The notes below the pieces were generated by a model, which saw only the letters and a program-made list of their open reading frames with translations, was not told where the DNA came from and searched no databases. From Clostridia bacterium (GTDB taxonomy: Bacteria; Bacillota; Clostridia; Oscillospirales; Acutalibacteraceae): 64,000 nucleotides of DNA. The first letter of the stretch is position 1. Each line of letters opens with the position of its first letter. Below, in pieces: positions 33,995 to 52,860 of this stretch. The translations under genes were made by a program, and so were the position numbers. The DNA lies in NCBI GenBank assembly GCA_017450005.1, contig JAFSYM010000146.1:2811-66810 (forward strand). Direction: 5' to 3'.

Positions 33995-35148
33995 CAGAAC
34001 ACCTCCTTGCCGGAAACGAATGCGGAATGTATAGTTATCGCATCGTCAAAAGCAATGACGTCCGCGTCGTACCCTTCGGCAAGGACGCCTTTTCGCAATC
34101 CGAGAATATTAGCGGGAACGGCGGTGAGCATCTTCACCGTGTCCGCGAGCGGCACGCCGACTTCCCGCGTGAGCGTGCGCACGAGCGTATCCGGCAGCGC
34201 AATACTGCCGGCGAACGCGCTGCGGTCGGACAGCATGCAGACGCCGTTTTCGATCACAAACGGCGTTTGCGCCATCATGCCGTGCGTGATGTCGGTACCG
34301 GCGGGCGCAAGGCTGTCCGTGACGAGCGCCACATGATCCGTACCTTTGACTTTGAGAACCAGCCGGATCAGCTCCGGCGGCAGATGCTTGCCGTCCGCGA
34401 TGATCTCAACATACAGATCGTCGCGCAGGAACGCGGTCTCAATCACGCCGGGACGGCGGAAACCGTGGTCGCGCGTCACGGTCGACGTGCAGGAATACAG
34501 ATGCGTGACCAGTGTGCAGCCGTTGCTCAGTGCGGGCAGCATCTGCGCGTATGTCGCGTCGGTGTGGCCGGCAGACGGCACAATACCGTTTTGCCGCAAA
34601 AAAGCGCAGAATGTGCCGTCCGGATCCCGTTCGGGCGCGTACGTCCAGCGGATGATCGCACTGCCGCACTCGTACACAAGCGCCGTATAGTCATGAGCAA
34701 CAGGGTCGGTGAGCGCTGCTTCGTTTTGTGCGCCGCACTGCGCGGGGGAGAGATATGGTCCCTCCAGATGCGCGCCGGCGATGTGCGTTTGCAGCTCCGG
34801 CGCAGCCATCGCCGTGCGGATGGATCGCACGGCCTTCGCCATTTCAGAAAAAGGTGCAGCGGAAACGGTGGGACATACACAGGTTGCGCCATGCCGCAAC
34901 AGAAAGTTGCAGCCGCGGACGACGTCCTGCGCCGTACCGGAAAAATCAAATCCGTTTGCGCCGTGCGTGTGCATGTCGATAAAACCGGGGGAAACATATA
35001 ACCCCGTCCGATCATACGTCTTATCATACGGCAGCGATCCGTCTGCCGTGACTGCGGTGATCGTGCCGTCCGAGCAGTAGATATAGCCGCCGCAAATGCC
35101 CTGCGGGGTCAGGATGCGGTCGCTCTGAATCCGAATACGCATTGTCAT
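33994..35148 (-). CDS. nagA: N-acetylglucosamine-6-phosphate deacetylase
   Basis: GFIDMHTHGANGFDF, GAHLEGPYL and ALVTDS motifs. Confidence 0.85.
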   Translation of the reverse strand: MTMRIRIQSDRILTPQGICGGYIYCSDGTITAVTADGSLPYDKTYDRTGLYVSPGFIDMHTHGANGFDFSGTAQDVVRGCNFLLRHGATCVCPTVSAAPFSEMAKAVRSIRTAMAAPELQTHIAGAHLEGPYLSPAQCGAQNEAALTDPVAHDYTALVYECGSAIIRWTYAPERDPDGTFCAFLRQNGIVPSAGHTDATYAQMLPALSNGCTLVTHLYSCTSTVTRDHGFRRPGVIETAFLRDDLYVEIIADGKHLPPELIRLVLKVKGTDHVALVTDSLAPAGTDITHGMMAQTPFVIENGVCMLSDRSAFAGSIALPDTLVRTLTREVGVPLADTVKMLTAVPANILGLRKGVLAEGYDADVIAFDDAITIHSAFVSGKEVF

Positions 35149-35918: not shown

Positions 35919-36095
35919 AGCAAAACACTCCCTGCTTTTCTGTTTTTACTCAAACCATTTGCTGTCAATCAGTATAGCATACGGCGTTTCGATATGCAAC
36001 AACGGAATGCAGTGTGCGGAACTTTTTATCGTTTGGTTTTCCAATCAGTTGATTTTTTGGGAATAATATGGTATTGTAATATGGGAGGGATCACA

Positions 36096-39000
36096 ATGAA
36101 ACATACCGGAAAAATCATTGCGGCGCTGCTGGCGCTTCTGATGATCGCGGGCAATTGTCTGCCTGCGTTCGCGGACTACGAAGACGGCATGGATTGCCCC
36201 GAATGCGGCAAATACCATTGGGATGACTGGATCGCGTGCGACGACTGCGGCATGTGTATCGACTGCGCGGCGGACTACACCTGCCCGTATTGCGGCGAGT
36301 GTACCTATTGCGCAGGGGAGCAGTGCGGCCAATGCGGCGCCTGTCCCGACTGCGGCGAGATCATCTGCGGCGAGTGCGGCGAGGCGTGCTTCCAATGTGC
36401 GGATGATTCCGAGTTCTGCATAAACTGCAGCCGGTGCGGCGAATGCAACGGCAACACAGCCTGTCCCGGCTGCTGCGAAAGCTGCGGCGAGTGCGAGGCA
36501 AGGGATTTCTGCAGCGAGTGCTTCTTCTGCGAGGACTGCAGCGGCGGCGTCTGCACCGAGTGCGGCAAGGCGTGCTACAACTGCGCGGACGATGACGAAT
36601 TCTGCCAGGCATGCGGACGCTGCGGCGAATGCAACGGCAACACAGTCTGCCCCGGCTGCCATGAAAACTGCGGCGAGTGCGAATCCAAAGACTTCTGCAG
36701 CGAGTGCTTCTATTGCGAAGACTGCGGCGAAATGATATGCACCGAATGCGGCAAAGCCTGCTTTAACTGCTCAGACGATTCCGAATTTTGCATAAGCTGC
36801 GGCCGCTGCGGCGACTGCAACGGAAATACAACGTGCCCCGGCTGCCGCGAGACCTGCGGCGAATGCAGTACATATTATAATCAATGCGGCCATTGCCTTT
36901 ATTGCGAGAATTGCGTGGATTACATCTGTGAAAACTGCGGAGACACGTGCACCAACTGCGCGGATGAGTCCGAATTCTGCGATAACTGCGGTCTTTGTCC
37001 GGACTGCAACGGCGACACCACCTGTACCTACTGCAGCATGACCTGCGGCGAATGCAATAATTACAATCAGTGTCAGGAATGTTTTGCGTGCGAAAACTGC
37101 ACGATCCTGTGTGACGGCTGCATGGATATCTGCGTCGACTGCGCGTACGGCTGGTGCCAGAGCTGCGGACTCTGCGGCGACTGCAACGGCGGTACCGCGT
37201 GCCCGAACTGCGGCGAAACCTGCATGGAGTGCAACAAATACGGCCAATGCTACGACTGCTATACCTGCGAGCAGTGCACAACGATTTGTGTGGAATGCGG
37301 TGAAAAGTGCATCGACTGTGCGGACAGCTTCTGCACAAACTGCAACACCTGTTCCGACTGCAACGGCGATACCGCCTGCCCGAACTGCGGCAACACCTGC
37401 GCGCTGTGCAAGGCCAATCCCCAGTGCGAGGATTGTCACACCTGCGCCGACTGCGTGCTGCTGTGCAGCAATTGCGGCGAGGTCTGCATGGAATGCGCGG
37501 CGGACGGCTGGTGCTTCGGCTGCGACACATGCGCCGACTGCAACGGCGGCACTGCCTGCCCGGGCTGCGGCGAAAGCTGTCTGGAATGTGAAACCATCAA
37601 TCAGTGTAAATCTTGTCATTACTGCGCCGACTGTGTGACAATCTGCGAAGAATGCGGCGACGTCTGCAGCGAGTGCGCGAGCAGCTTCTGCATGAACTGC
37701 AATACCTGCGGCGACTGCAACGGCGACACGGTCTGCGAGGGCTGCGGCAACACCTGCCTTGCATGCGGCAACATTGACCAGTGCCGCGATTGTTACCTTT
37801 GCGCGAACTGTACGGATATTTGCAGCGGCTGCGGCGAGATCTGCTCCGACTGTGCAGGCGGTTGGTGCGACCACTGCATGACCTGCGGCGACTGCAACGG
37901 CGACACCGTTTGCCCATCCTGCAGCATGACCTGCGAAACATGCGGTAATTTTGAGCAATGCCGCAACTGCTGGAACTGCGCAGAATGCGCTGACATCTGC
38001 GTAAACTGCGGCGACGCCTGCTCGGCGTGCGACGCCGGGTTCAACGAAACATTCCATCTGTGCAGCAACTGTGATGTGAACGATGTACAGGTTTCTATTG
38101 TAATCGACAAGATCGACGCCATCGGCACGGTGGAGTACACCGCCGCGTGCAAGGCGAAGATCGACGCTGCGGCAGCCTACTATAACGCGTTGTCCAAGCA
38201 GCAGCAACAGCAGGTGACCAATTACACCGTGCTTGGTGCAGCGCAAAGAAATTATGCCCGGCTGAAAGAGCAAGCAGATCAGCGCAAGGCAAACACGGTG
38301 GTAAACGGCATCAACAATATCGGTACGGTTACCTACACTGGCGAATGCTATAAGAAAATCGCAATGGGAAGAAAAGCGTACACGCAACTGACAGCCGATC
38401 AGAAAGCGCTTGTGACCAATTATGATGTTCTCGCGGCAGCCGAAGCAGAATATGCCAAGCTGAAAGCGGCCGCAGCCGCAACGGCTGCCGACAAGGCCGC
38501 CGTCGATGCTGTGACGAACAAGATCAACGCCATCGGTACGGTCGCTTACACCGACGCGTGCAAAACGAAGATTGACAAGGCAAGAGGCGCCTATGACGCG
38601 CTGACCGCCAATCAGAAAAAGCTGGTGAACAATTACGCCGCGCTCACGGCAGCCGAGGCACAGTATGCCGCGCTGAAAGCGGCTGCGGAAAAGACTGCCG
38701 CCGACAAGGTCGCCGCAGCTTCTGCAGCGGACAAGATCAACGCCATCGGTACGCCTGCCTATACCGCCGAGAGCAAAGCGAAGATCGACGCGGCAAGAAG
38801 CGCGTATAACGCGCTGACGGCCGATCAGAAAGCGCTCGTGACCAACTACACGAAGCTCACGACAGCCGAAGCGAAATATGCCGCGCTGAAAGCGGCAGAA
38901 GAACAGGCGGCTGCTGAGAAAGCAGCAACAGACGACGCGGTCGCGAAGATCAACGCCATCGGCACTGTGGAATACACCGCCGAATGTAAAGCAAAGATTG

Positions 39001-39869
39001 ACGCGGCAAGAAATGCGTACGACGCGCTGACCGCAGAGCAGAAGAGCCATATTACAAATAATGATTACGCCAAGCTGACGGCGGCCGAAACCAAATACGC
39101 CAATCTGAAGGCCAAAGCAGATCAGGCGGCTGCCGACAAAGCCGCTGCGGACGCGGCGACTGCGAAGATCGACGCCATCGGCACGGTGGAAAACAGCGCT
39201 GAGAGCAAGGCGAAGATCGACGCGGCGCGAACAGCTTACGACACGCTGACCGCGGAGCAGAAAAAGCAGGTGACCAATTACGCGGCGCTGAAAGCTGCAG
39301 AAACAGAATACGCCGAAGTCAAAGCCGCTGCCGAACAGGCGGTTGCCGACAAAGCCGCCGCAGACGCAGTGATCGCAAAGATCGACGCGATCGGCACGGT
39401 CGCGTATACGTCCGCGAGCAAGACGAAGATCAATGATGCGAGAGTCGCATATACGGCGCTGACAGAAGCGGGAAAAGCGCTGGTGACCAATTACGGCACG
39501 CTGACGGCGGCGGAAGATGCATACGCTGCGCTGAAAGCGGTGAATCCCGATCAGCCGAGAGTCGTCCATTCCGTCGCGTTCGGCGAAAACGTCACGCTCC
39601 AATGCAAGAAGAGCGCAGAGCTGCATCCGGATATTCATGCCGACGACGTCGCGAGCTGCAAAATAAGCTATTCCAGCTCCAACGAGAAGGTCGCAACGGT
39701 GGACGAAAACGGCAATGTGTTCGGCGTGAAGCAAGGAACGGCGACCATCACTTGTACCGTGACGGATGAAACAGGTACCGAGATGCCTGCCCAATGTACC
39801 GTCACCGTTAAGTACACATGGTGGCAGTGGCTTATCGTGATCCTGCTGTTTGGCTGGATCTGGTATTAA
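36096..39869 (+). CDS. 1257-aa surface protein: Sec signal, ~626-aa CxxC-only cysteine array, 7 Ala-rich helical repeats, Big_2-like Ig domain, C-terminal TM anchor
   Basis: RBS GGGAGGGA 5 nt before the ATG at 36096. Signal MKHTGKIIAALLALLMIAGNCLPAFA. The track ORF (from 35142) runs open through nagB antisense and is over-extended. C-terminus is WWQWLIVILLFGWIWY-stop. Confidence 0.85.
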   Translation: MKHTGKIIAALLALLMIAGNCLPAFADYEDGMDCPECGKYHWDDWIACDDCGMCIDCAADYTCPYCGECTYCAGEQCGQCGACPDCGEIICGECGEACFQCADDSEFCINCSRCGECNGNTACPGCCESCGECEARDFCSECFFCEDCSGGVCTECGKACYNCADDDEFCQACGRCGECNGNTVCPGCHENCGECESKDFCSECFYCEDCGEMICTECGKACFNCSDDSEFCISCGRCGDCNGNTTCPGCRETCGECSTYYNQCGHCLYCENCVDYICENCGDTCTNCADESEFCDNCGLCPDCNGDTTCTYCSMTCGECNNYNQCQECFACENCTILCDGCMDICVDCAYGWCQSCGLCGDCNGGTACPNCGETCMECNKYGQCYDCYTCEQCTTICVECGEKCIDCADSFCTNCNTCSDCNGDTACPNCGNTCALCKANPQCEDCHTCADCVLLCSNCGEVCMECAADGWCFGCDTCADCNGGTACPGCGESCLECETINQCKSCHYCADCVTICEECGDVCSECASSFCMNCNTCGDCNGDTVCEGCGNTCLACGNIDQCRDCYLCANCTDICSGCGEICSDCAGGWCDHCMTCGDCNGDTVCPSCSMTCETCGNFEQCRNCWNCAECADICVNCGDACSACDAGFNETFHLCSNCDVNDVQVSIVIDKIDAIGTVEYTAACKAKIDAAAAYYNALSKQQQQQVTNYTVLGAAQRNYARLKEQADQRKANTVVNGINNIGTVTYTGECYKKIAMGRKAYTQLTADQKALVTNYDVLAAAEAEYAKLKAAAAATAADKAAVDAVTNKINAIGTVAYTDACKTKIDKARGAYDALTANQKKLVNNYAALTAAEAQYAALKAAAEKTAADKVAAASAADKINAIGTPAYTAESKAKIDAARSAYNALTADQKALVTNYTKLTTAEAKYAALKAAEEQAAAEKAATDDAVAKINAIGTVEYTAECKAKIDAARNAYDALTAEQKSHITNNDYAKLTAAETKYANLKAKADQAAADKAAADAATAKIDAIGTVENSAESKAKIDAARTAYDTLTAEQKKQVTNYAALKAAETEYAEVKAAAEQAVADKAAADAVIAKIDAIGTVAYTSASKTKINDARVAYTALTEAGKALVTNYGTLTAAEDAYAALKAVNPDQPRVVHSVAFGENVTLQCKKSAELHPDIHADDVASCKISYSSSNEKVATVDENGNVFGVKQGTATITCTVTDETGTEMPAQCTVTVKYTWWQWLIVILLFGWIWY
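36195..38072 (+). repeat. in-frame tandem coding repeats: nine 59-62-aa units, each with 16 Cys as eight CxxC pairs, plus partial units at both ends
   Basis: Each unit contains C[GSP][DE]CNG[NDG]T.C; I count nine copies of CNGxT. Early units read C.ECG.AC.NC.DD.EFC..C.RCG.CNGNT.CPGC, and the first two close with FCSECF.CEDC. Later units read C..CG..C..CA..(W/F)C..C..C.DCNG.T.C..C...C..C....QC..C..C..C. Confidence 0.85.
38089..39540 (+). repeat. in-frame tandem coding repeats: seven ~65-70-aa Ala-rich helical units
   Basis: Consensus I[ND]AIGTV.YT..[SC]K.KID.AR.AY.ALT..QK.LVTNY..L..AE..YA.LKA, followed by an Ala/Asp/Lys linker. IGT occurs seven times. Confidence 0.8.
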
Positions 39870-39928
39870 GCACAGGGAACGCGCACAGCGCCGATAAACG
39901 CGCGGCGAACGAATAGAATAGACAAAGA

Positions 39929-39975
39929 AAGAGGCTTTTCATCCGAATGCGGAGAGAAGCCTCTTCTCTGTTCAA
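39929..39975 (+). terminator. possible terminator hairpin after the Cys-rich gene
   Basis: Stem AAGAGGCTT / AAGCCTCTT with a ~19-nt loop and a weak T-rich tail. Confidence 0.35.
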
Positions 39976-39997: not shown

Positions 39998-40480
39998 CCC
40001 TACGGAAAACGTAACGGCGACGTCGTGTATGGAACGCAACCATGCGTTCCGCCTTTGCGCATTTCCGGCGAGATTGTAGGGGCGGGCATGACCGCCCGAC
40101 AGAGACGAAGTCTCTGCAAAAGCGCAAAAAAACCGCAGGCAAAACCTGAAACGAACGAACAAAAATAACCCGGTGTCATTGCGAGCAAAGCGAAGCAATC
40201 CGTCTCCCCCGAAGAACGTTCAGACAAGAACAGGGACCGCGGGTGTCCGGTGGACACCTCTGCCGCAGGCAGAAGCGCCGACCGAGCCGGCAGGCGAGAC
40301 ACGGATTGCCGCAGTCGCTTCGCTCCTTCGCAATGACAGTTTGTTTTATGTGTTTGCGCCGCCGGGGACGGCATGTTGCAGAACGTCGGCACGATGTGGG
40401 CATCGTCCCCTACGAAAAACGCAACGGCGACGTCGTGTAGGGAACGCATATATGCGTTCCGCCTCTGCGCATTCCCGGCG
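39998..40480. repeat. composite intergenic repeat: two 73-nt direct repeats bracketing a family-2 inverted repeat
   Basis: DR 39998-40070 vs 40408-40480 (66/73 identical), each with the palindrome GGAACGCA....TGCGTTCC. Internal IR GTGTCATTGCGAGCAAAGCGAAGCAATCCGT (40173-40203) pairs with ACGGATTGCC...CGCAATGACA (40302-40339). Confidence 0.6.
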
Positions 40481-49323: not shown

Positions 49324-52300
49324 ATGAAATCCCGACATTTCCGTGCCTTTTTCAGCATATTACTGACGCTGCTGCTTATCACCAACTGCGCAGCATCGGC
49401 CTTCGCTTCGTATGAACCGCTGCCGCAGATTCTGCATTTGGTCAGCGGCGAGACGGACGCGGACGGTGCGGTCTATGCGGACTATCTTGTAGACGAGCAG
49501 GGCAACCGTGTCGAGGAGACGGTTGAGCCGCGCGTGCGTGCGGCGGATTCGCTGCCGAGTAGTTACGACCTGCGCGATTACGGTGTAGTTACGGGCATCA
49601 GGAATCAGGCAGGCGCAGGAAGCTGCTGGGCGTTTGCATCAATCGCATCTCTGGAGTCGAGCTACATCCGTCAGGGCTTCGGTAGCGTATCGAATACCGA
49701 TTATTCCGAGGCGCATCTGGTCTGGTTTTCGCAGCGGCAGCGTACAACAAACGCGGCGGACCCGACATACGGCGACGGCAAGAATTGTGCTCTGCCGTTT
49801 ACAACGGGCGGGAACTGGAACGGCGTCGCCTCGCAGCTTATGCGCGGCAGCGGTCTGGAGCTTGAGTCAAATGCGCCATGGATTGCGACATACGATGAAG
49901 ATGAAATGATGCAGATGGAGCAGCAGGAATCTTCCCGATACGATTGCTATGCGCGCATGTGGAGCGTGGTCAGCATCCGCGACAACTCCGCAACCGCGCT
50001 CAAGCAGAAGATCATGCAGAACGGTGCGGCCATGTTCTCCTATTATGACGATTACAGCACCACACGCACCGGCTACAATGCGTCCAAAACCGCCTACTAT
50101 CAGACAGCCAAGGTCGGCGTGACAAACCACGCCGTGGCCGTGGTCGGCTGGGACGACAACTACTCACGCACCAATTTCAACGTAAGTCCCCGCCCGAGTG
50201 CAAACGGCGCATGGCTGGTCAAGGGAAGCTGGAGCAGCGCATGGGGCAACGGCGGATACTACTGGATCTCTTATGAAGATCCGTCGATCGGTTCGTTTGT
50301 GTCCTATGTAGCAGCCAAAAAAGATGTTTATGATAAGATTTACCAGTACGACGGCTCCTATCCGCGCACCTATTTCACACTGTCCAACAGCGCCAGGATG
50401 GCCAATGTTTTTACAGCCGAATCGGAGGAGATGCTCACGCACGTTGCGTTCTATACGCCAAACGCGACGCCCGTCAAGGCGACAGTCGACGTCTACACGG
50501 CCGGTACAAGCTATACCGGCCCGAGTACAAAAAGTCCGATCATCGGTATGGACAAGGTGACAAGCGCCACCACCACGCTCTCGTCCGTCGAATACGGCTA
50601 CACCACCGTCGAGCTCAAAAACCCGGTACATCTGCAAATGTGGCAGCCGTTTACGGTGGTCGTCACGTTCGAGGGCAGCAGCGTGATGATCCCTGTGGAG
50701 GGCGAAACCGTCGCCAATCCCGCCGACGGCCAGACGACCTATGACGGCGGCATGGGCGAGAGCTACTTCGGCTACAGCAACTACTGGTTCGATACAAACA
50801 GCTATGCGGACGGCAAGGATTACAACAACGTTCCGGTCAAGGCGATGACGCGGGAAATCGTGCCGGCCGAACCGACGCTTTCGGTGCAGACCATGCCGAA
50901 CCGGACGGTTTACCGTTACGGGGAGTCGCTCGATTTTACCGGCCTGAAGCTGCTCTACACCGACGAATACGGTGCGGAGTCGACCGTCACGAGCGGCTAT
51001 ACCTGCGACGCGCAGACAGCGCAGACGCTCGGTACGCAGACTGTGACGGTGCAGTACGGCGGCGCGAGCGCAACGTTCAATGTGACGGTGCAGCCGTGGG
51101 ATCGCTCACTGACAATCTCATCTTTGCCGAGCAAGCTCTCCTATTATTACGGCGAAACGCTTGACCTGACCGGGCTGTCGCTTCTGTACAGCGACGAGTA
51201 CGGCACGCAGACCACGCTGACAGATTCGTTTGTCTGCGATACGCAGCAGATTCGCACGATCGGCTCACAGCCGGTCACGGTCTCCTACGGCGATCTGTAC
51301 GTGACGTTCAGCGTGACCGGCATGCCCAGAGAACGCACGCTGACGATCGAATCGCTGCCGGATAAGCTCTCTTACCGCTACGGCGAAACGCTGGATCTGA
51401 CCGGACTGTCACTTGCGTACAGCGACGAATACGGCGTTGTGACGTCGATGAGCGGCGGATTTGCCTGCGATGTGACGACGCTGCAGACGCTCGGCACACA
51501 GTCCGTGACGCTGACGTACGACGGTTTGTCCGTGACGTTTGATGTGTCCGTGCAGCCGTGGGAGCGCACGCTGACGATCGCCTCGCCCCCGGACACAAAC
51601 GAATTCCTTTACGGTGAGCCGATCGACCTTGCCGGACTGACGCTGCTGTACACAGACGAATACGGCGTCGGAACGACTCTGACGGACGGCTTTGACTGCG
51701 ACGCGCAGATCATACAGACCATCGGCGCGCAGACCGTAACGCTATCCTACGCCGGCTTGTCCGTGTCACTTGAGGTGACCGGCCTCGCGTGGGAGCGCAC
51801 GCTGACGGTCGAAAATCTGCCGACGAAGGTGGATTATCTGTACGGCGAGCCGCTTGACCTGAGCGGTCTTGTGCTGCGTTACCGGGACGAATACGGACAG
51901 GAAACCACGCTGACGCAGGGCTTTGTCTATGAAACGCAGACGGTCAGCACGCTGGGCGTGCAGTCGGTAACCGTCTGGTACGGCGATCTGTCCGTGACGT
52001 TCAACGTGACCGGTCTGCCGCGCGAACGCACGCTTTCCGTATACACGCCGCCGGAGAAGACGGACTACTTCATCGGCGAGGGCTTTTCGGCAACGGGGTT
52101 GTCGCTGCAGTATACGGATGAATACGGCGACGCGCTGATCGTGACGGAAGGCTTCTCCTTTACGTCCGAACCGTTCACACAGACCGGCCTGCATACTGTG
52201 GAGGTTTACTACGGCGACATGAGCGTGTCGGTCGAGATCAACGTGCACAGGAAGGGATTGATGCTGGTCGGCGAGGGCACGGCGCATCCCGGGCAGACGG

Positions 52301-52860
52301 TTCGCATCCCGGTACAGATTGCAGAAAACCCCGGTATTGTTGCGATGATGCTGCATCTGACGTACGATCCCGATGTGCTGGAGCTGCAGGATGTTGAAAA
52401 CGGCGAGATCTTCGATGACGCGTCCTTCACCCCCGGCGGATCAACGGGCGATATGCCGTATACGGCGCTCTGGGTGAGCGCGAATGCCCATGAGTCGAAT
52501 GCGCAAAGCGGCGTGCTGATCACGTATGTCTTCCGCGTGCGCACGGACGCGCCGATCGGCAGTACAGAGATTTCTGTCAGTTACGATCCGGAATCCACGT
52601 TTGACGTGAATCTGAAAAACGCGGCCTTCGACGCGCGCGCCGGTGTGACGACGGTGGAGCGCGTGCCCGGCGACGTCAACGCCGACGGGGCGATTACGCT
52701 GCTGGACACTGTCATGCTGCGCCGGTTCCTGGCCGGATGGGCGGTGACGATCAATAAGGGCAATGCCGATGTGGACGCGGACGATGCACCGACGCTCAAG
52801 GATTGTGTGCGTATCACGCGCTATCTTGCGGGCGGATATGACAATGTAGAATTACTGTAA
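49324..52860 (+). CDS. secreted papain-family (C1) cysteine peptidase with beta-sandwich domain, six Big_3-like Ig repeats, cohesin-like domain and type-I-like dockerin
   Basis: Signal peptide. QAGAGSCWAFAS (Cys codon 49624-49626), NHAVAVVGWDD and GSWSSAWGNGGYYWISY. Six Y[TSR]DEYG-containing ~76-aa repeats (50869-52248). Cohesin-like 52249-52655. Dockerin GDVNADGAITLLD...DVDADDAPTLKD (52666-52857). Confidence 0.85.
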   Translation: MKSRHFRAFFSILLTLLLITNCAASAFASYEPLPQILHLVSGETDADGAVYADYLVDEQGNRVEETVEPRVRAADSLPSSYDLRDYGVVTGIRNQAGAGSCWAFASIASLESSYIRQGFGSVSNTDYSEAHLVWFSQRQRTTNAADPTYGDGKNCALPFTTGGNWNGVASQLMRGSGLELESNAPWIATYDEDEMMQMEQQESSRYDCYARMWSVVSIRDNSATALKQKIMQNGAAMFSYYDDYSTTRTGYNASKTAYYQTAKVGVTNHAVAVVGWDDNYSRTNFNVSPRPSANGAWLVKGSWSSAWGNGGYYWISYEDPSIGSFVSYVAAKKDVYDKIYQYDGSYPRTYFTLSNSARMANVFTAESEEMLTHVAFYTPNATPVKATVDVYTAGTSYTGPSTKSPIIGMDKVTSATTTLSSVEYGYTTVELKNPVHLQMWQPFTVVVTFEGSSVMIPVEGETVANPADGQTTYDGGMGESYFGYSNYWFDTNSYADGKDYNNVPVKAMTREIVPAEPTLSVQTMPNRTVYRYGESLDFTGLKLLYTDEYGAESTVTSGYTCDAQTAQTLGTQTVTVQYGGASATFNVTVQPWDRSLTISSLPSKLSYYYGETLDLTGLSLLYSDEYGTQTTLTDSFVCDTQQIRTIGSQPVTVSYGDLYVTFSVTGMPRERTLTIESLPDKLSYRYGETLDLTGLSLAYSDEYGVVTSMSGGFACDVTTLQTLGTQSVTLTYDGLSVTFDVSVQPWERTLTIASPPDTNEFLYGEPIDLAGLTLLYTDEYGVGTTLTDGFDCDAQIIQTIGAQTVTLSYAGLSVSLEVTGLAWERTLTVENLPTKVDYLYGEPLDLSGLVLRYRDEYGQETTLTQGFVYETQTVSTLGVQSVTVWYGDLSVTFNVTGLPRERTLSVYTPPEKTDYFIGEGFSATGLSLQYTDEYGDALIVTEGFSFTSEPFTQTGLHTVEVYYGDMSVSVEINVHRKGLMLVGEGTAHPGQTVRIPVQIAENPGIVAMMLHLTYDPDVLELQDVENGEIFDDASFTPGGSTGDMPYTALWVSANAHESNAQSGVLITYVFRVRTDAPIGSTEISVSYDPESTFDVNLKNAAFDARAGVTTVERVPGDVNADGAITLLDTVMLRRFLAGWAVTINKGNADVDADDAPTLKDCVRITRYLAGGYDNVELL

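Follow-up and report, generated by a model that had tools for sequence, protein, structure and literature searches.

The 64,000-nucleotide (nt) stretch of DNA analysed here (hereafter, the window), which comes from contig JAFSYM010000146.1 of an uncultured Clostridia bacterium of the ruminant gut, contains a gene for a 1257-residue exported protein whose N-terminal part is an array of tandem CxxC knuckles, and this array identifies a rare, unannotated domain family. There are 165 Cys among the 626 amino acids (aa) of residues 34–659 (26.4 %; 174 in the whole protein), an exact count that agrees with the estimate of one residue in four given in a preliminary description of the same DNA made from the sequence alone. 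The exported proteins of Firmicutes are as a rule very poor in cysteine, with a mean of about 0.5 Cys in aerobic species and none at all in 33 % of those from anaerobic Firmicutes (PMC2823432), so that a segment of this kind is an extreme outlier. The interpretation that we favour, and to which we would give about an even chance of being correct, is that the array would form the head of an anchored surface fibril and consist of an extracellular tandem chain of Cys4/Cys3His metal knuckles.

Architecture and conservation of the cysteine array

Two residues separate neighbouring cysteines in 104 of the 164 Cys-to-Cys gaps, there is a single CC pair and CxC does not occur. The protein as a whole has 104 CxxC motifs, 32 of them CxxCG and six CPxCG, and in just three is the second Cys followed by His (CxxCH). 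Over 632 residues the array is very acidic and low in hydrophobic residues, with 108 Asp or Glu, 15 Lys or Arg, seven His, 52 Ile, Leu, Val or Met and 42 aromatic residues (Phe, Trp or Tyr). Between an N-terminal cap (N-cap) and a degenerate terminal unit (C-cap) lie eight tandem units (Table 1), in seven of which there are 16 Cys and in the other 17, and each of these is built from two half units of about 30 residues with the pattern CxxCxxCxxC-x(3–5)-CxxC-x3-CxxC-x(4–5). Apart from a cap, the array amounts to about 9.5 units in all. Runs of free 32-aa half units are found in one relative, P0007. In the N-cap a double knuckle is followed by irregular CxxC knuckles and then by a half unit; the cap is conserved across all subfamilies, with the consensus DYEDGxECxxCGxxxWDDWxC over 40 distinct N-termini of the family. 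The C-cap is conserved in the orthologues, with Asn at column 51 and the motif FNE(T/A)xH/R-x-C.

The Cys pattern is the conserved feature of this protein. When windows of three units were aligned (n=39, from 11 proteins), 46 of the 48 Cys were invariant and the remaining two at least 90 % conserved; in single units (n=45) all 16 Cys columns were invariant; and a hidden Markov model of the unit collected 524 distinct instances from 65 proteins, in which each Cys column was 88–100 % Cys. The preliminary description had allowed that homologues might not keep the pattern, and the opposite was found: the array is a real conserved module, and its alignment points to strong purifying selection on the cysteines. 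At the DNA level the repeats are just 73–77 % identical (as measured with TRF, with periods of 213–219 nt for the helical repeats described below), which speaks against both an assembly artefact and a recent duplication and indicates repeats that are old and have been maintained by selection.

Distribution of the family

No Pfam or NCBIfam model matched the array, whether in the whole protein, in sub-segments at E up to 10 or in divergent homologues, a single-sequence search and three profile searches of the PDB gave no significant match, and full-text literature searches found no paper on the family. The opinion that no described bacterial family has this composition has thus survived scans with Pfam and NCBIfam, in which no characterized family appeared. 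The protein is not unique: about 65 relatives were collected. A word-index search returned 52 proteins, of which 50 bear arrays of 46–240 Cys, and an exhaustive HMMER scan of 1.84 billion representatives at 50 % identity, made with the array alone, found no more than 32 clusters with E ≤1e-3, 19 of which had E ≤1e-10. Over the array, the identity to the closest relative (P0002) is 80 %. Full-length orthologues that share its architecture (MBQ9552907.1 among the orthologues) occur in metagenome-assembled genomes (MAGs) from the rectum of goat and roe deer that bear the label ‘Clostridia bacterium’, and in Acutalibacteraceae MAGs, whereas the labels of more distant members are Ruminococcaceae or Oscillospiraceae; the census that had been proposed shows a rare family confined, where a source is named, to Oscillospirales-type gut MAGs. 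The NCBI names of its members are just ‘Ig-like domain-containing protein’ or ‘hypothetical protein’.

Variation within the family takes several forms. A minimal member of 159 aa, P0059, lacks both repeats and stalk and is made up of the N-cap, Big_2 and a tail of the form KYTFWQW, and an orthologue of 1302 aa, P0005, has its tail cut after FGW, with about 120 unrelated residues in its place; these two could be natural deletion or frameshift variants, or the outcome of repeat collapse during assembly. Four distant members (P0021, P0023, P0045 and P0048) have a conserved CC...AEE.GC.H..C cap after the array and then repeated, unannotated His/Cys modules (H...HW..C..CG ... H) that look like further units of the zinc-ribbon type.

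When a repetitive gene from a MAG is described, it is important that mis-assembly, decay into a pseudogene or lack of expression is considered. Repetitive sequence could indeed be mis-assembled, the exact window protein is absent from a collection of 15 billion sequences, the promoter match is weak, and P0059 and P0005 look like collapsed or frame-shifted variants. Nevertheless, the reading frame, for which the preliminary description had kept a frameshift in mind, is unbroken over its full 3.8 kb and is accompanied by a strong ribosome-binding site, a signal peptide and a terminator-like hairpin; the divergence of the DNA repeats, the orthologues of the same architecture in independent MAGs and the strong selection on the cysteines point the same way, and we regard an artefact or a decaying gene as scarcely credible.

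Metal sites, disulfides or free thiols

The clearest indication of what the cysteines do comes from the context of the third Cys of the N-cap. In 18 of the 40 distinct N-caps this context reads C-x2-C-G-x-C, never with His at +5, and in the remaining 22 it reads C-x2-G-x-H-C, so that Cys at +3 and His at +5 are mutually exclusive in all 40 (Fisher p 9e-12, without phylogenetic correction). At least three lineages show the Cys state, and one of them is nested among His-state sequences. A tetrahedral metal site tolerates the replacement of Cys by a nearby His, which a disulfide cannot do, and the swap therefore argues for a metal site. A profile of the N-cap found as its best PDB match the Cys4 zinc ribbon of bL32, with CxxCG-x8-CxxCG spacing (E 0.011–0.1, sub-threshold), and next the rubredoxins, through the DDWxC knuckle (E 0.2–3), and Pfam Zn_ribbon_3 reached E 0.0055 and 16.6 bits on the N-cap, under its 27-bit cut-off; the E values of the PDB matches are as good as a 20-residue motif can yield. 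In the window protein the knuckles read C34-PE-C37-G ... C48-DD-C51-G, with a spacer one residue longer than in bL32. The N-cap thus has the motif, spacing and ligand interchange of the zinc-ribbon fold class, with a best match (E 0.011) that is sub-threshold. On these sequence features, the N-cap is very probably a metal site and the repeat units probably are too.

A His/Asp/Glu-rich stretch with 5–8 His per 20 aa (e.g. HTHDHDHEHEH) stands just before the N-cap in 16 of about 60 members (P0008, P0013, P0016, P0018, P0020–22, P0025, P0026, P0028, P0031, P0033, P0037, P0039, P0043 and P0057). It lies within the N-terminal 40–120 residues, after the first hydrophobic segment and ahead of a second segment, an amphipathic one, at the end of which stands the AxA site. 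It could be a pro-region that captures metal or could belong to a leader in two parts, and it counts in favour of metal binding by the array. No such stretch is present in the window protein.

The array might instead be a disulfide-laddered module, in which the 16 Cys of each unit would form eight disulfides and give a rigid, protease-resistant extracellular rod without metal, after the model of furin/EGF-type repeats, the VSPs (variant-specific surface proteins) of Giardia, beetle antifreeze protein or the myxobacterial Cys-rich repeats. The protein is extracellular, the number of Cys per unit is even, very few basic residues are present to offset thiolate charge, the Cys columns show no enrichment for metal ligands among their substitutions, and DsbA/VKOR-type oxidases are encoded by some Clostridia (PMC12453122), all of which such a ladder would accommodate. 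It leaves the Cys/His swap of the N-cap unexplained, however, as well as CPxCG/CxxCG knuckles whose bL32-like spacing indicates metal sites. Furthermore, the accepted sign, in genomic data, of exported proteins with disulfide bonds is a bias towards even Cys numbers (PMC2823432), and the Cys totals of the arrays, odd in 34 members and even in 27, show none; parity varies even between close orthologues (165 in the window protein, 148 in P0001–P0003, and 149 in P0004 and P0005, counted past the signal peptide), which argues weakly against disulfides. No disulfide-rich repeat family in Pfam or NCBIfam matched. The host, finally, is a strict anaerobe of the reducing gut, as indicated by the desulfoferrodoxin gene near by and by the gut MAGs from which the named relatives come, a setting that favours metal and in which structural disulfides would be unstable. 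We consider the disulfide ladder unlikely.

Were the cysteines free or exchangeable, the array could act as a sacrificial thiol sink for O2, reactive oxygen species, quinones and electrophiles, or could attach the cell covalently to host mucins or plant polymers through thiol–disulfide exchange. A very high density of thiols at the distal tip of a protein from an anaerobe that lives beside oxygenated mucosa would suit these functions, as would the tolerance of odd Cys counts and the existence of dockerin-bearing relatives, which suggest entry into polymer-binding complexes. The positional invariance of the 16 Cys and of the spacers in each unit fits a defined fold and not a loose brush of thiols, a fold being indicated also by the Cys/His swap and the zinc-ribbon spacing, and no thioredoxin-like or reductase gene was found at the locus or in seven homologue neighbourhoods with called genes. 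A reactive thiol surface is thus distinctly unlikely in our opinion.

A further possibility is that the Cys4 sites hold iron, as rubredoxin-type Fe(Cys)4 or self-assembled Fe–S centres, and that some 40 closely spaced centres act as a redox wire, carrying electrons from the cell surface to acceptors outside or from outside donors to the surface. Both knuckles of rubredoxin, CxxCG-aromatic and DDWxC, have a counterpart in the N-cap (E 0.2–3), and the acidic composition is rubredoxin-like; two sites per 30 aa would put the centres within hopping distance, an anoxic habitat rich in Fe2+ and sulfide would permit spontaneous loading, and the long stalk sets the array beyond the wall. That same stalk, however, would link the array to the membrane without any redox centres, the leader is of the Sec and not the Tat type, which would require extracellular assembly of the cofactor, and electron-transfer partner genes are lacking in the neighbourhood. 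Pfam rubredoxin and Fer4 models found no match, CxxCxxCxxxCP is absent and CxxCH occurs only three times. We think a redox wire very unlikely. Two related readings were rejected outright: a multihaem cytochrome, in view of the three CxxCH among 104 CxxC motifs and the seven His in 632 aa, and a 2[4Fe-4S] ferredoxin or polyferredoxin, in view of quartets of the form CxxCxxCxxC, the lack of a Fer4 match and the lack of a twin Arg.

Several observations weigh against the metal-knuckle interpretation itself or lend it no support. The Cys totals show no bias towards multiples of four, substitutions in the Cys columns of the 524 units are rare and are not enriched for His, Asp or Glu, and the signature of ligand swapping is limited to the N-cap. 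The matches to zinc proteins are all below significance, and the repeat units have no detectable match; such weak, sub-threshold matches as were found are almost all to zinc modules (RING, PHD, FYVE, LIM and NZF domains, ribosomal ribbons and the retroviral knuckle). About 41 Cys4 sites would add some 80 negative charges to an array that is already acidic. Rubredoxins are similarly acidic. Export by the Sec route would mean that metal is taken up outside the cell, with no known chaperone. The structure prediction that the preliminary description had proposed was carried out with AlphaFold2 and yielded no usable model, the predicted local distance difference test (pLDDT) score being 55.8 for three units modelled with 39 repeat windows and 51.1 for the N-cap plus unit 1 modelled with 25 family sequences; zinc fingers are usually modelled well by AlphaFold2, so that the low confidence counts on this side. 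Foldseek searches with both low-confidence models gave E ≥1.7. The biological role proposed below, which is argued from analogy, is the weakest step of the mechanism.

Export and display at the cell surface

The protein starts with a signal peptide that, by sequence reading, has the features of a Sec substrate: Lys at positions 2 and 6, a hydrophobic core, A-F-A ahead of D27 and no twin Arg. The conserved block of the family begins exactly at D27, in agreement with the AFA-DY cleavage site proposed earlier. The protein was also considered as a lipoprotein, a Tat substrate and a Cys-rich spore-coat protein; there is no lipobox and no RR, and the Sec leader and surface anchors argue against the spore coat.

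The array is followed by the seven Ala-rich repeats and the Big_2-like domain that the preliminary description had recognized. The repeats have the consensus ADxVxxKINAIGTVxYTAECKAKIDAARxAYxALTAxQKxLVTNYxxLTAAExxYAxLKAAAxQxAADKAA, from which a helical character and a rod shape would follow, and a sub-segment scan and a profile search found no Pfam or NCBIfam family and no PDB homologue for them. A match of the repeat profile to MHETase (E 0.0014), covering a 44-residue segment of an unrelated hydrolase, was taken as chance. The Big_2 region gave, apart from its Pfam match (Table 1), weak PDB matches to immunoglobulin (Ig)-like domains.

In the relatives the array is always N-terminal, immediately behind the signal peptide, and is joined, across regions composed of Ig-like, Listeria–Bacteroides repeat or DUF4214 modules, to C-terminal anchors of six kinds. 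The KYTWWQW tail is shared by the window protein and P0001–P0004; other members have a transmembrane helix with a Lys-rich tail, SLH, CW_binding_2, dockerins (P0006 and P0007) or LPXTG-like motifs (IPQTG in P0045, VPKTG in P0034). Six independent anchoring solutions for one passenger lead us to a strong inference that the array is displayed outside the cell, and the constant position of the anchors, C-terminal to the array, places it at the end farthest from the anchor, as had been suggested for this protein alone.

The last 16 residues of the window protein (WWQWLIVILLFGWIWY) precede the stop codon directly, with no basic cytoplasmic tail, and had been described as a hydrophobic anchor. The sequence is as described; it belongs, however, to a conserved 19-residue motif that is common to many other surface proteins, so that it may act in sorting and not simply as a transmembrane helix. 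A scan returned 39 loci, every one of which ends in VKYTWWQW[IL][IL]x[IV]xLFGW[IL]WY-COOH or in a variant close to it; at least 33 of them encode other, low-Cys proteins that are otherwise unrelated (L011–L043 among the match ends). These loci come from Acutalibacteraceae, Oscillospiraceae and ‘Clostridia’ MAGs, eight of them from the one MAG RGIG1844. Eight of the tail proteins were examined with Pfam: each of them has a leader, and the passengers are domains typical of surface proteins, among them BspA-type leucine-rich repeats, Listeria–Bacteroides repeats (Flg_new), Big_2/3, Peptidase_C1 (papain-like) with lectin-like domains, and DUF6273. For the tail itself there was no match to NCBIfam at E up to 10 and none to any Pfam model, a word-index search with 42 aa of tail returned only five short, uninformative fragments, and full-text literature searches found no paper on a WWQW tail. 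The window protein has neither an LPXTG motif nor a match to the sortase, exosortase, rhombosortase or archaeosortase CTERM anchor models. By its sequence and its distribution the tail looks like a lineage-specific sorting or anchoring signal, as yet undescribed, for which it is a candidate.

Comparison with known systems

As far as our searches show, the array joins known kinds of structure, namely Cys-knuckle metal sites and CXXC-rich surface coats, in an undescribed context: extracellular, with about 40 tandem sites, in an anaerobic Gram-positive host. In its working the array is most like a concatenation of zinc-ribbon or rubredoxin knuckles, and as a surface protein it comes closest to the Giardia VSPs; by the defining features that were compared, it is not a VSP, a metallothionein, a ferredoxin, a multihaem cytochrome or a myxobacterial Cys-rich repeat. 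The VSPs and related high-cysteine membrane proteins of Giardia, which likewise lives without oxygen in the gut, are type I surface proteins too, with a CXXC-rich extracellular domain (compare the 104 CxxC motifs here), a single C-terminal membrane anchor and almost no cytoplasmic tail. VSPs contain about 12 % Cys, as against 26 % in the bacterial array. They are eukaryotic and lack the strict periodicity of 30 and 60 aa, and the bacterial array is carried on a long helical stalk; the VSP model PF03302 found no match in the window protein at E up to 1, and the protein has no CRGKA tail, ending instead in ...FGWIWY. Resistance to proteases, pH and temperature has been reported for VSPs (PMC6341118, PMC3656445), which by analogy would be the best functional counterpart for a protective coat.

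The N-cap resembles bL32 and the rubredoxins in its CxxCG-x9-CxxCG spacing (x8 in bL32, with which relatives that lack the extra Ala are identical in spacing), in the DDWxC knuckle, in the aromatics after the first knuckle, in its acidic composition and in the interchange of Cys and His ligands. Known ribbons, however, are single intracellular domains of 40–60 aa, whereas the array has about 80 exported knuckles with spacers of 2–6 residues. Metallothioneins such as SmtA and PmtA have a comparable Cys content (about 26–30 %), and metal–thiolate chemistry would be expected of both, with a possible role in buffering or detoxification; they are, however, small (<10 kDa) cytosolic proteins, in which CxC, CC and CxxC are mixed, thiolates bridge the metal clusters and aromatics are essentially lacking, whereas the array is a secreted and anchored segment of 632 aa with almost only CxxC, one CC, 42 aromatic residues, a strict repeat periodicity and no match to a Pfam metallothionein.

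The surface receptors of the Myxococcus TraA type belong to an aerobic didermic bacterium that has disulfide machinery, and their repeats, of the TIGR02232 type, make up the stalk on which a PA14-like head sits. In the anaerobic Gram-positive lineage studied here, by contrast, the array itself forms the distal head, and the TIGR02232/DUF4215 Cys-rich repeat found no NCBIfam or Pfam match in the window protein or in three divergent homologues; what the two systems have in common is a surface protein with tandem Cys-rich repeats and a lineage-specific C-terminal sorting tag (PMC3820747), which in TraA is MYXO-CTERM. The stalk, with its seven Ala-rich units of about 71 aa and an Ala-rich linker, resembles the helical stalks of Gram-positive bacteria (the FIVAR–GA repeats of Ebh and other three-helix-bundle repeats), from which it differs in having no Pfam match to FIVAR, GA or another helical repeat and no PDB homologue. 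Three predicted helices in each unit would, by analogy, be consistent with a rigid spacer that lifts the head above the wall.

Genomic context

The open reading frame is intact from 36096 to 39869 on the forward strand (1257 codons plus stop). Homologues share the same MKH(T/S)xKIL beginning, in support of the ATG at 36096, and an in-frame upstream extension from a TTG at 35142 was rejected, as it would overlap nagB on the other strand. The features of the gene and of its flanks are given in Table 1.

Table 1. Features of the Cys-array gene and of its flanking DNA, with positions in the window
Feature	Residues	Position	Strand	Remarks
Sigma-70-like promoter match, weak		36038..36067	+	TTTCCA-18-AATAAT; 9 of 12 consensus positions; consensus match only
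Ribosome-binding site		36083..36089	+	GGGAGGG; 6 nt upstream of ATG; read from sequence
Signal peptide	1–26	36096..36173	+	MKHTGKIIAALLALLMIAGNCLPAFA; Sec/signal peptidase I type by sequence reading
N-cap	27–116	36174..36443	+	DYEDGMDCPECGKYHWDDWIACDDCGMC, zinc-ribbon-like double knuckle
Eight tandem Cys units	117–599	36444..37892	+	Each 59–63 aa, starting CNG[NDG]T
Degenerate terminal unit (C-cap)	600–662	37893..38081	+	15 Cys; ends ...CSACDAGFNETFHLCSNCD
Seven Ala-rich helical repeats	666–1150	38091..39545	+	62–73 aa, five of 71; presumed stalk
Big_2 Ig-like domain	1163–1225	39582..39770	+	PF02368; E 6.6e-10; 39.2 bits (cut-off 22.8)
C-terminal tail	1239–1257	39810..39866	+	KYTWWQWLIVILLFGWIWY-COOH; hydrophobic anchor, candidate lineage-specific sorting signal
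Terminator-like hairpin		39916..39973	+	About 50 nt past the stop codon

The gene is divergent from nagB and nagA, which lie upstream, the intergenic region between nagB and the Cys-array gene being 177 nt long and containing the weak promoter match. The terminator-like hairpin lies in a 116-nt stretch with a folding energy of −41.9 kcal/mol (z −4.5 against shuffles), and the T tract behind it is poor (UCUCUGUUC). Further downstream, beyond a repeat-containing gap of about 640 nt, are a convergent gene for an AGCS-family transporter and then the desulfoferrodoxin gene; both the divergent nagBA pair and the repeat-filled gap were as first described. The gap has a 73-nt direct repeat (39998–40070 and 40408–40480; 89 % identical, 410 nt apart), each copy of which carries an internal palindrome, GGAACGCA....TGCGTTCC, as well as a 27-nt inverted repeat (40158–40184 and 40328–40354). 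The core of the 73-nt repeat is absent from the rest of the window, and the gap repeats may be a small mobile element, or one resembling repetitive extragenic palindromes, that marks a variable insertion site. The orthologues of the Cys-array gene are located in a different genomic context. Elsewhere in the window (49324–52860, forward strand) there is a gene for a secreted protein of 1178 aa that is identical to MBQ7547820.1, a ‘bacterial Ig-like domain-containing protein’ of a Clostridia bacterium MAG; its end is dockerin-like (...DVDADDAPTLKDCVRITRYLAGG...), which suggests that the organism has cohesin–dockerin assemblies, like those of the dockerin-bearing relatives of the Cys-array protein.

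In some relatives the Cys-array gene has conserved companions. Directly upstream and on the same strand, in L001, L005, L008, L002 and L045, is a three-gene module that encodes a seven-transmembrane (7TM) HisKA_7TM-like sensor (529–558 aa), a membrane protein with no Pfam match (411–432 aa) and a Response_reg+GerE regulator (200–207 aa). Its coordinates are L001:3744–7374, L002:4338–7821 and L045:2398–5874, and it covers three divergent subfamilies, with identities of 24–85 % across loci. This two-component module is absent from the window and from L044. In the P0029/P0020 subfamily (L003:1347–6260 and L004:1–3009) the upstream context is different: a divergent pair, made up of an SBP_bac_8 solute-binding protein and a GerE-type regulator of 550–570 aa, is conserved there, as is a secreted protein with a 77 %-identical N-terminal domain. 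The preliminary description had proposed a candidate cell-surface system. Surface display is supported, whereas no multi-gene system is present at this locus; a system exists in relatives, and the gene studied here is an orphan. A more elaborate form of the redox reading, in which the array would be an extracellular nanowire or electron sponge with about 40 Fe(Cys)4 or Fe–S knuckles in the place of haems, carried past the Gram-positive wall by the helical stalk and induced in most relatives by the 7TM-sensor/LuxR module, is in our estimation a long shot.

Proposed mechanism and biological significance

According to the metal-knuckle interpretation, the protein would be exported by the Sec route and cleaved at AFA|DY, and its KYTWWQW...FGWIWY tail would either keep it in the membrane or be handled by a sorting enzyme. 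The Big_2 domain and the seven repeats of about 71 aa, which would be of a three-helix type, would serve as a spacer through the cell wall, and the distal head of some 630 residues of CxxC knuckles would fold only around metal ions. If one non-conserved extra Cys is removed, the remaining 164 could make up 41 Cys4 sites (Cys3His in some relatives), at two per 30-aa half unit. Loading of such a head would be extracellular, the Zn2+ or Fe2+ being drawn from the anoxic lumen of the gut, and would give a very acidic, rigid and probably protease-resistant metal–thiolate rod at the cell periphery. Its primary activity would be the binding of thiophilic metals with high capacity and high affinity, and its biological role might be that of a protective or adhesive coat, by analogy with the Giardia VSPs, or of a surface buffer for thiophilic metals.

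This study adds to the known domains an unannotated family that current structure prediction is not able to fold, and it offers two side leads, a candidate C-terminal sorting signal in the Acutalibacteraceae and Oscillospiraceae and, in the relatives, a sensor/regulator module that may reveal the inducing signal. The Cys module could be engineered for metal-binding surface display. Were the redox wire to prove true, gut Clostridia would have a hitherto unrecognized means of exchanging electrons or metal outside the cell. If metal is bound as we suppose, the array would be the first bacterial poly-metal–thiolate module at the cell surface, with about 40 sites per molecule, and would bear on surface redox protection and on how anaerobes of the rumen and hindgut acquire Zn, Fe, Cu and Co, or buffer them, in surroundings where they are made scarce by sulfide.

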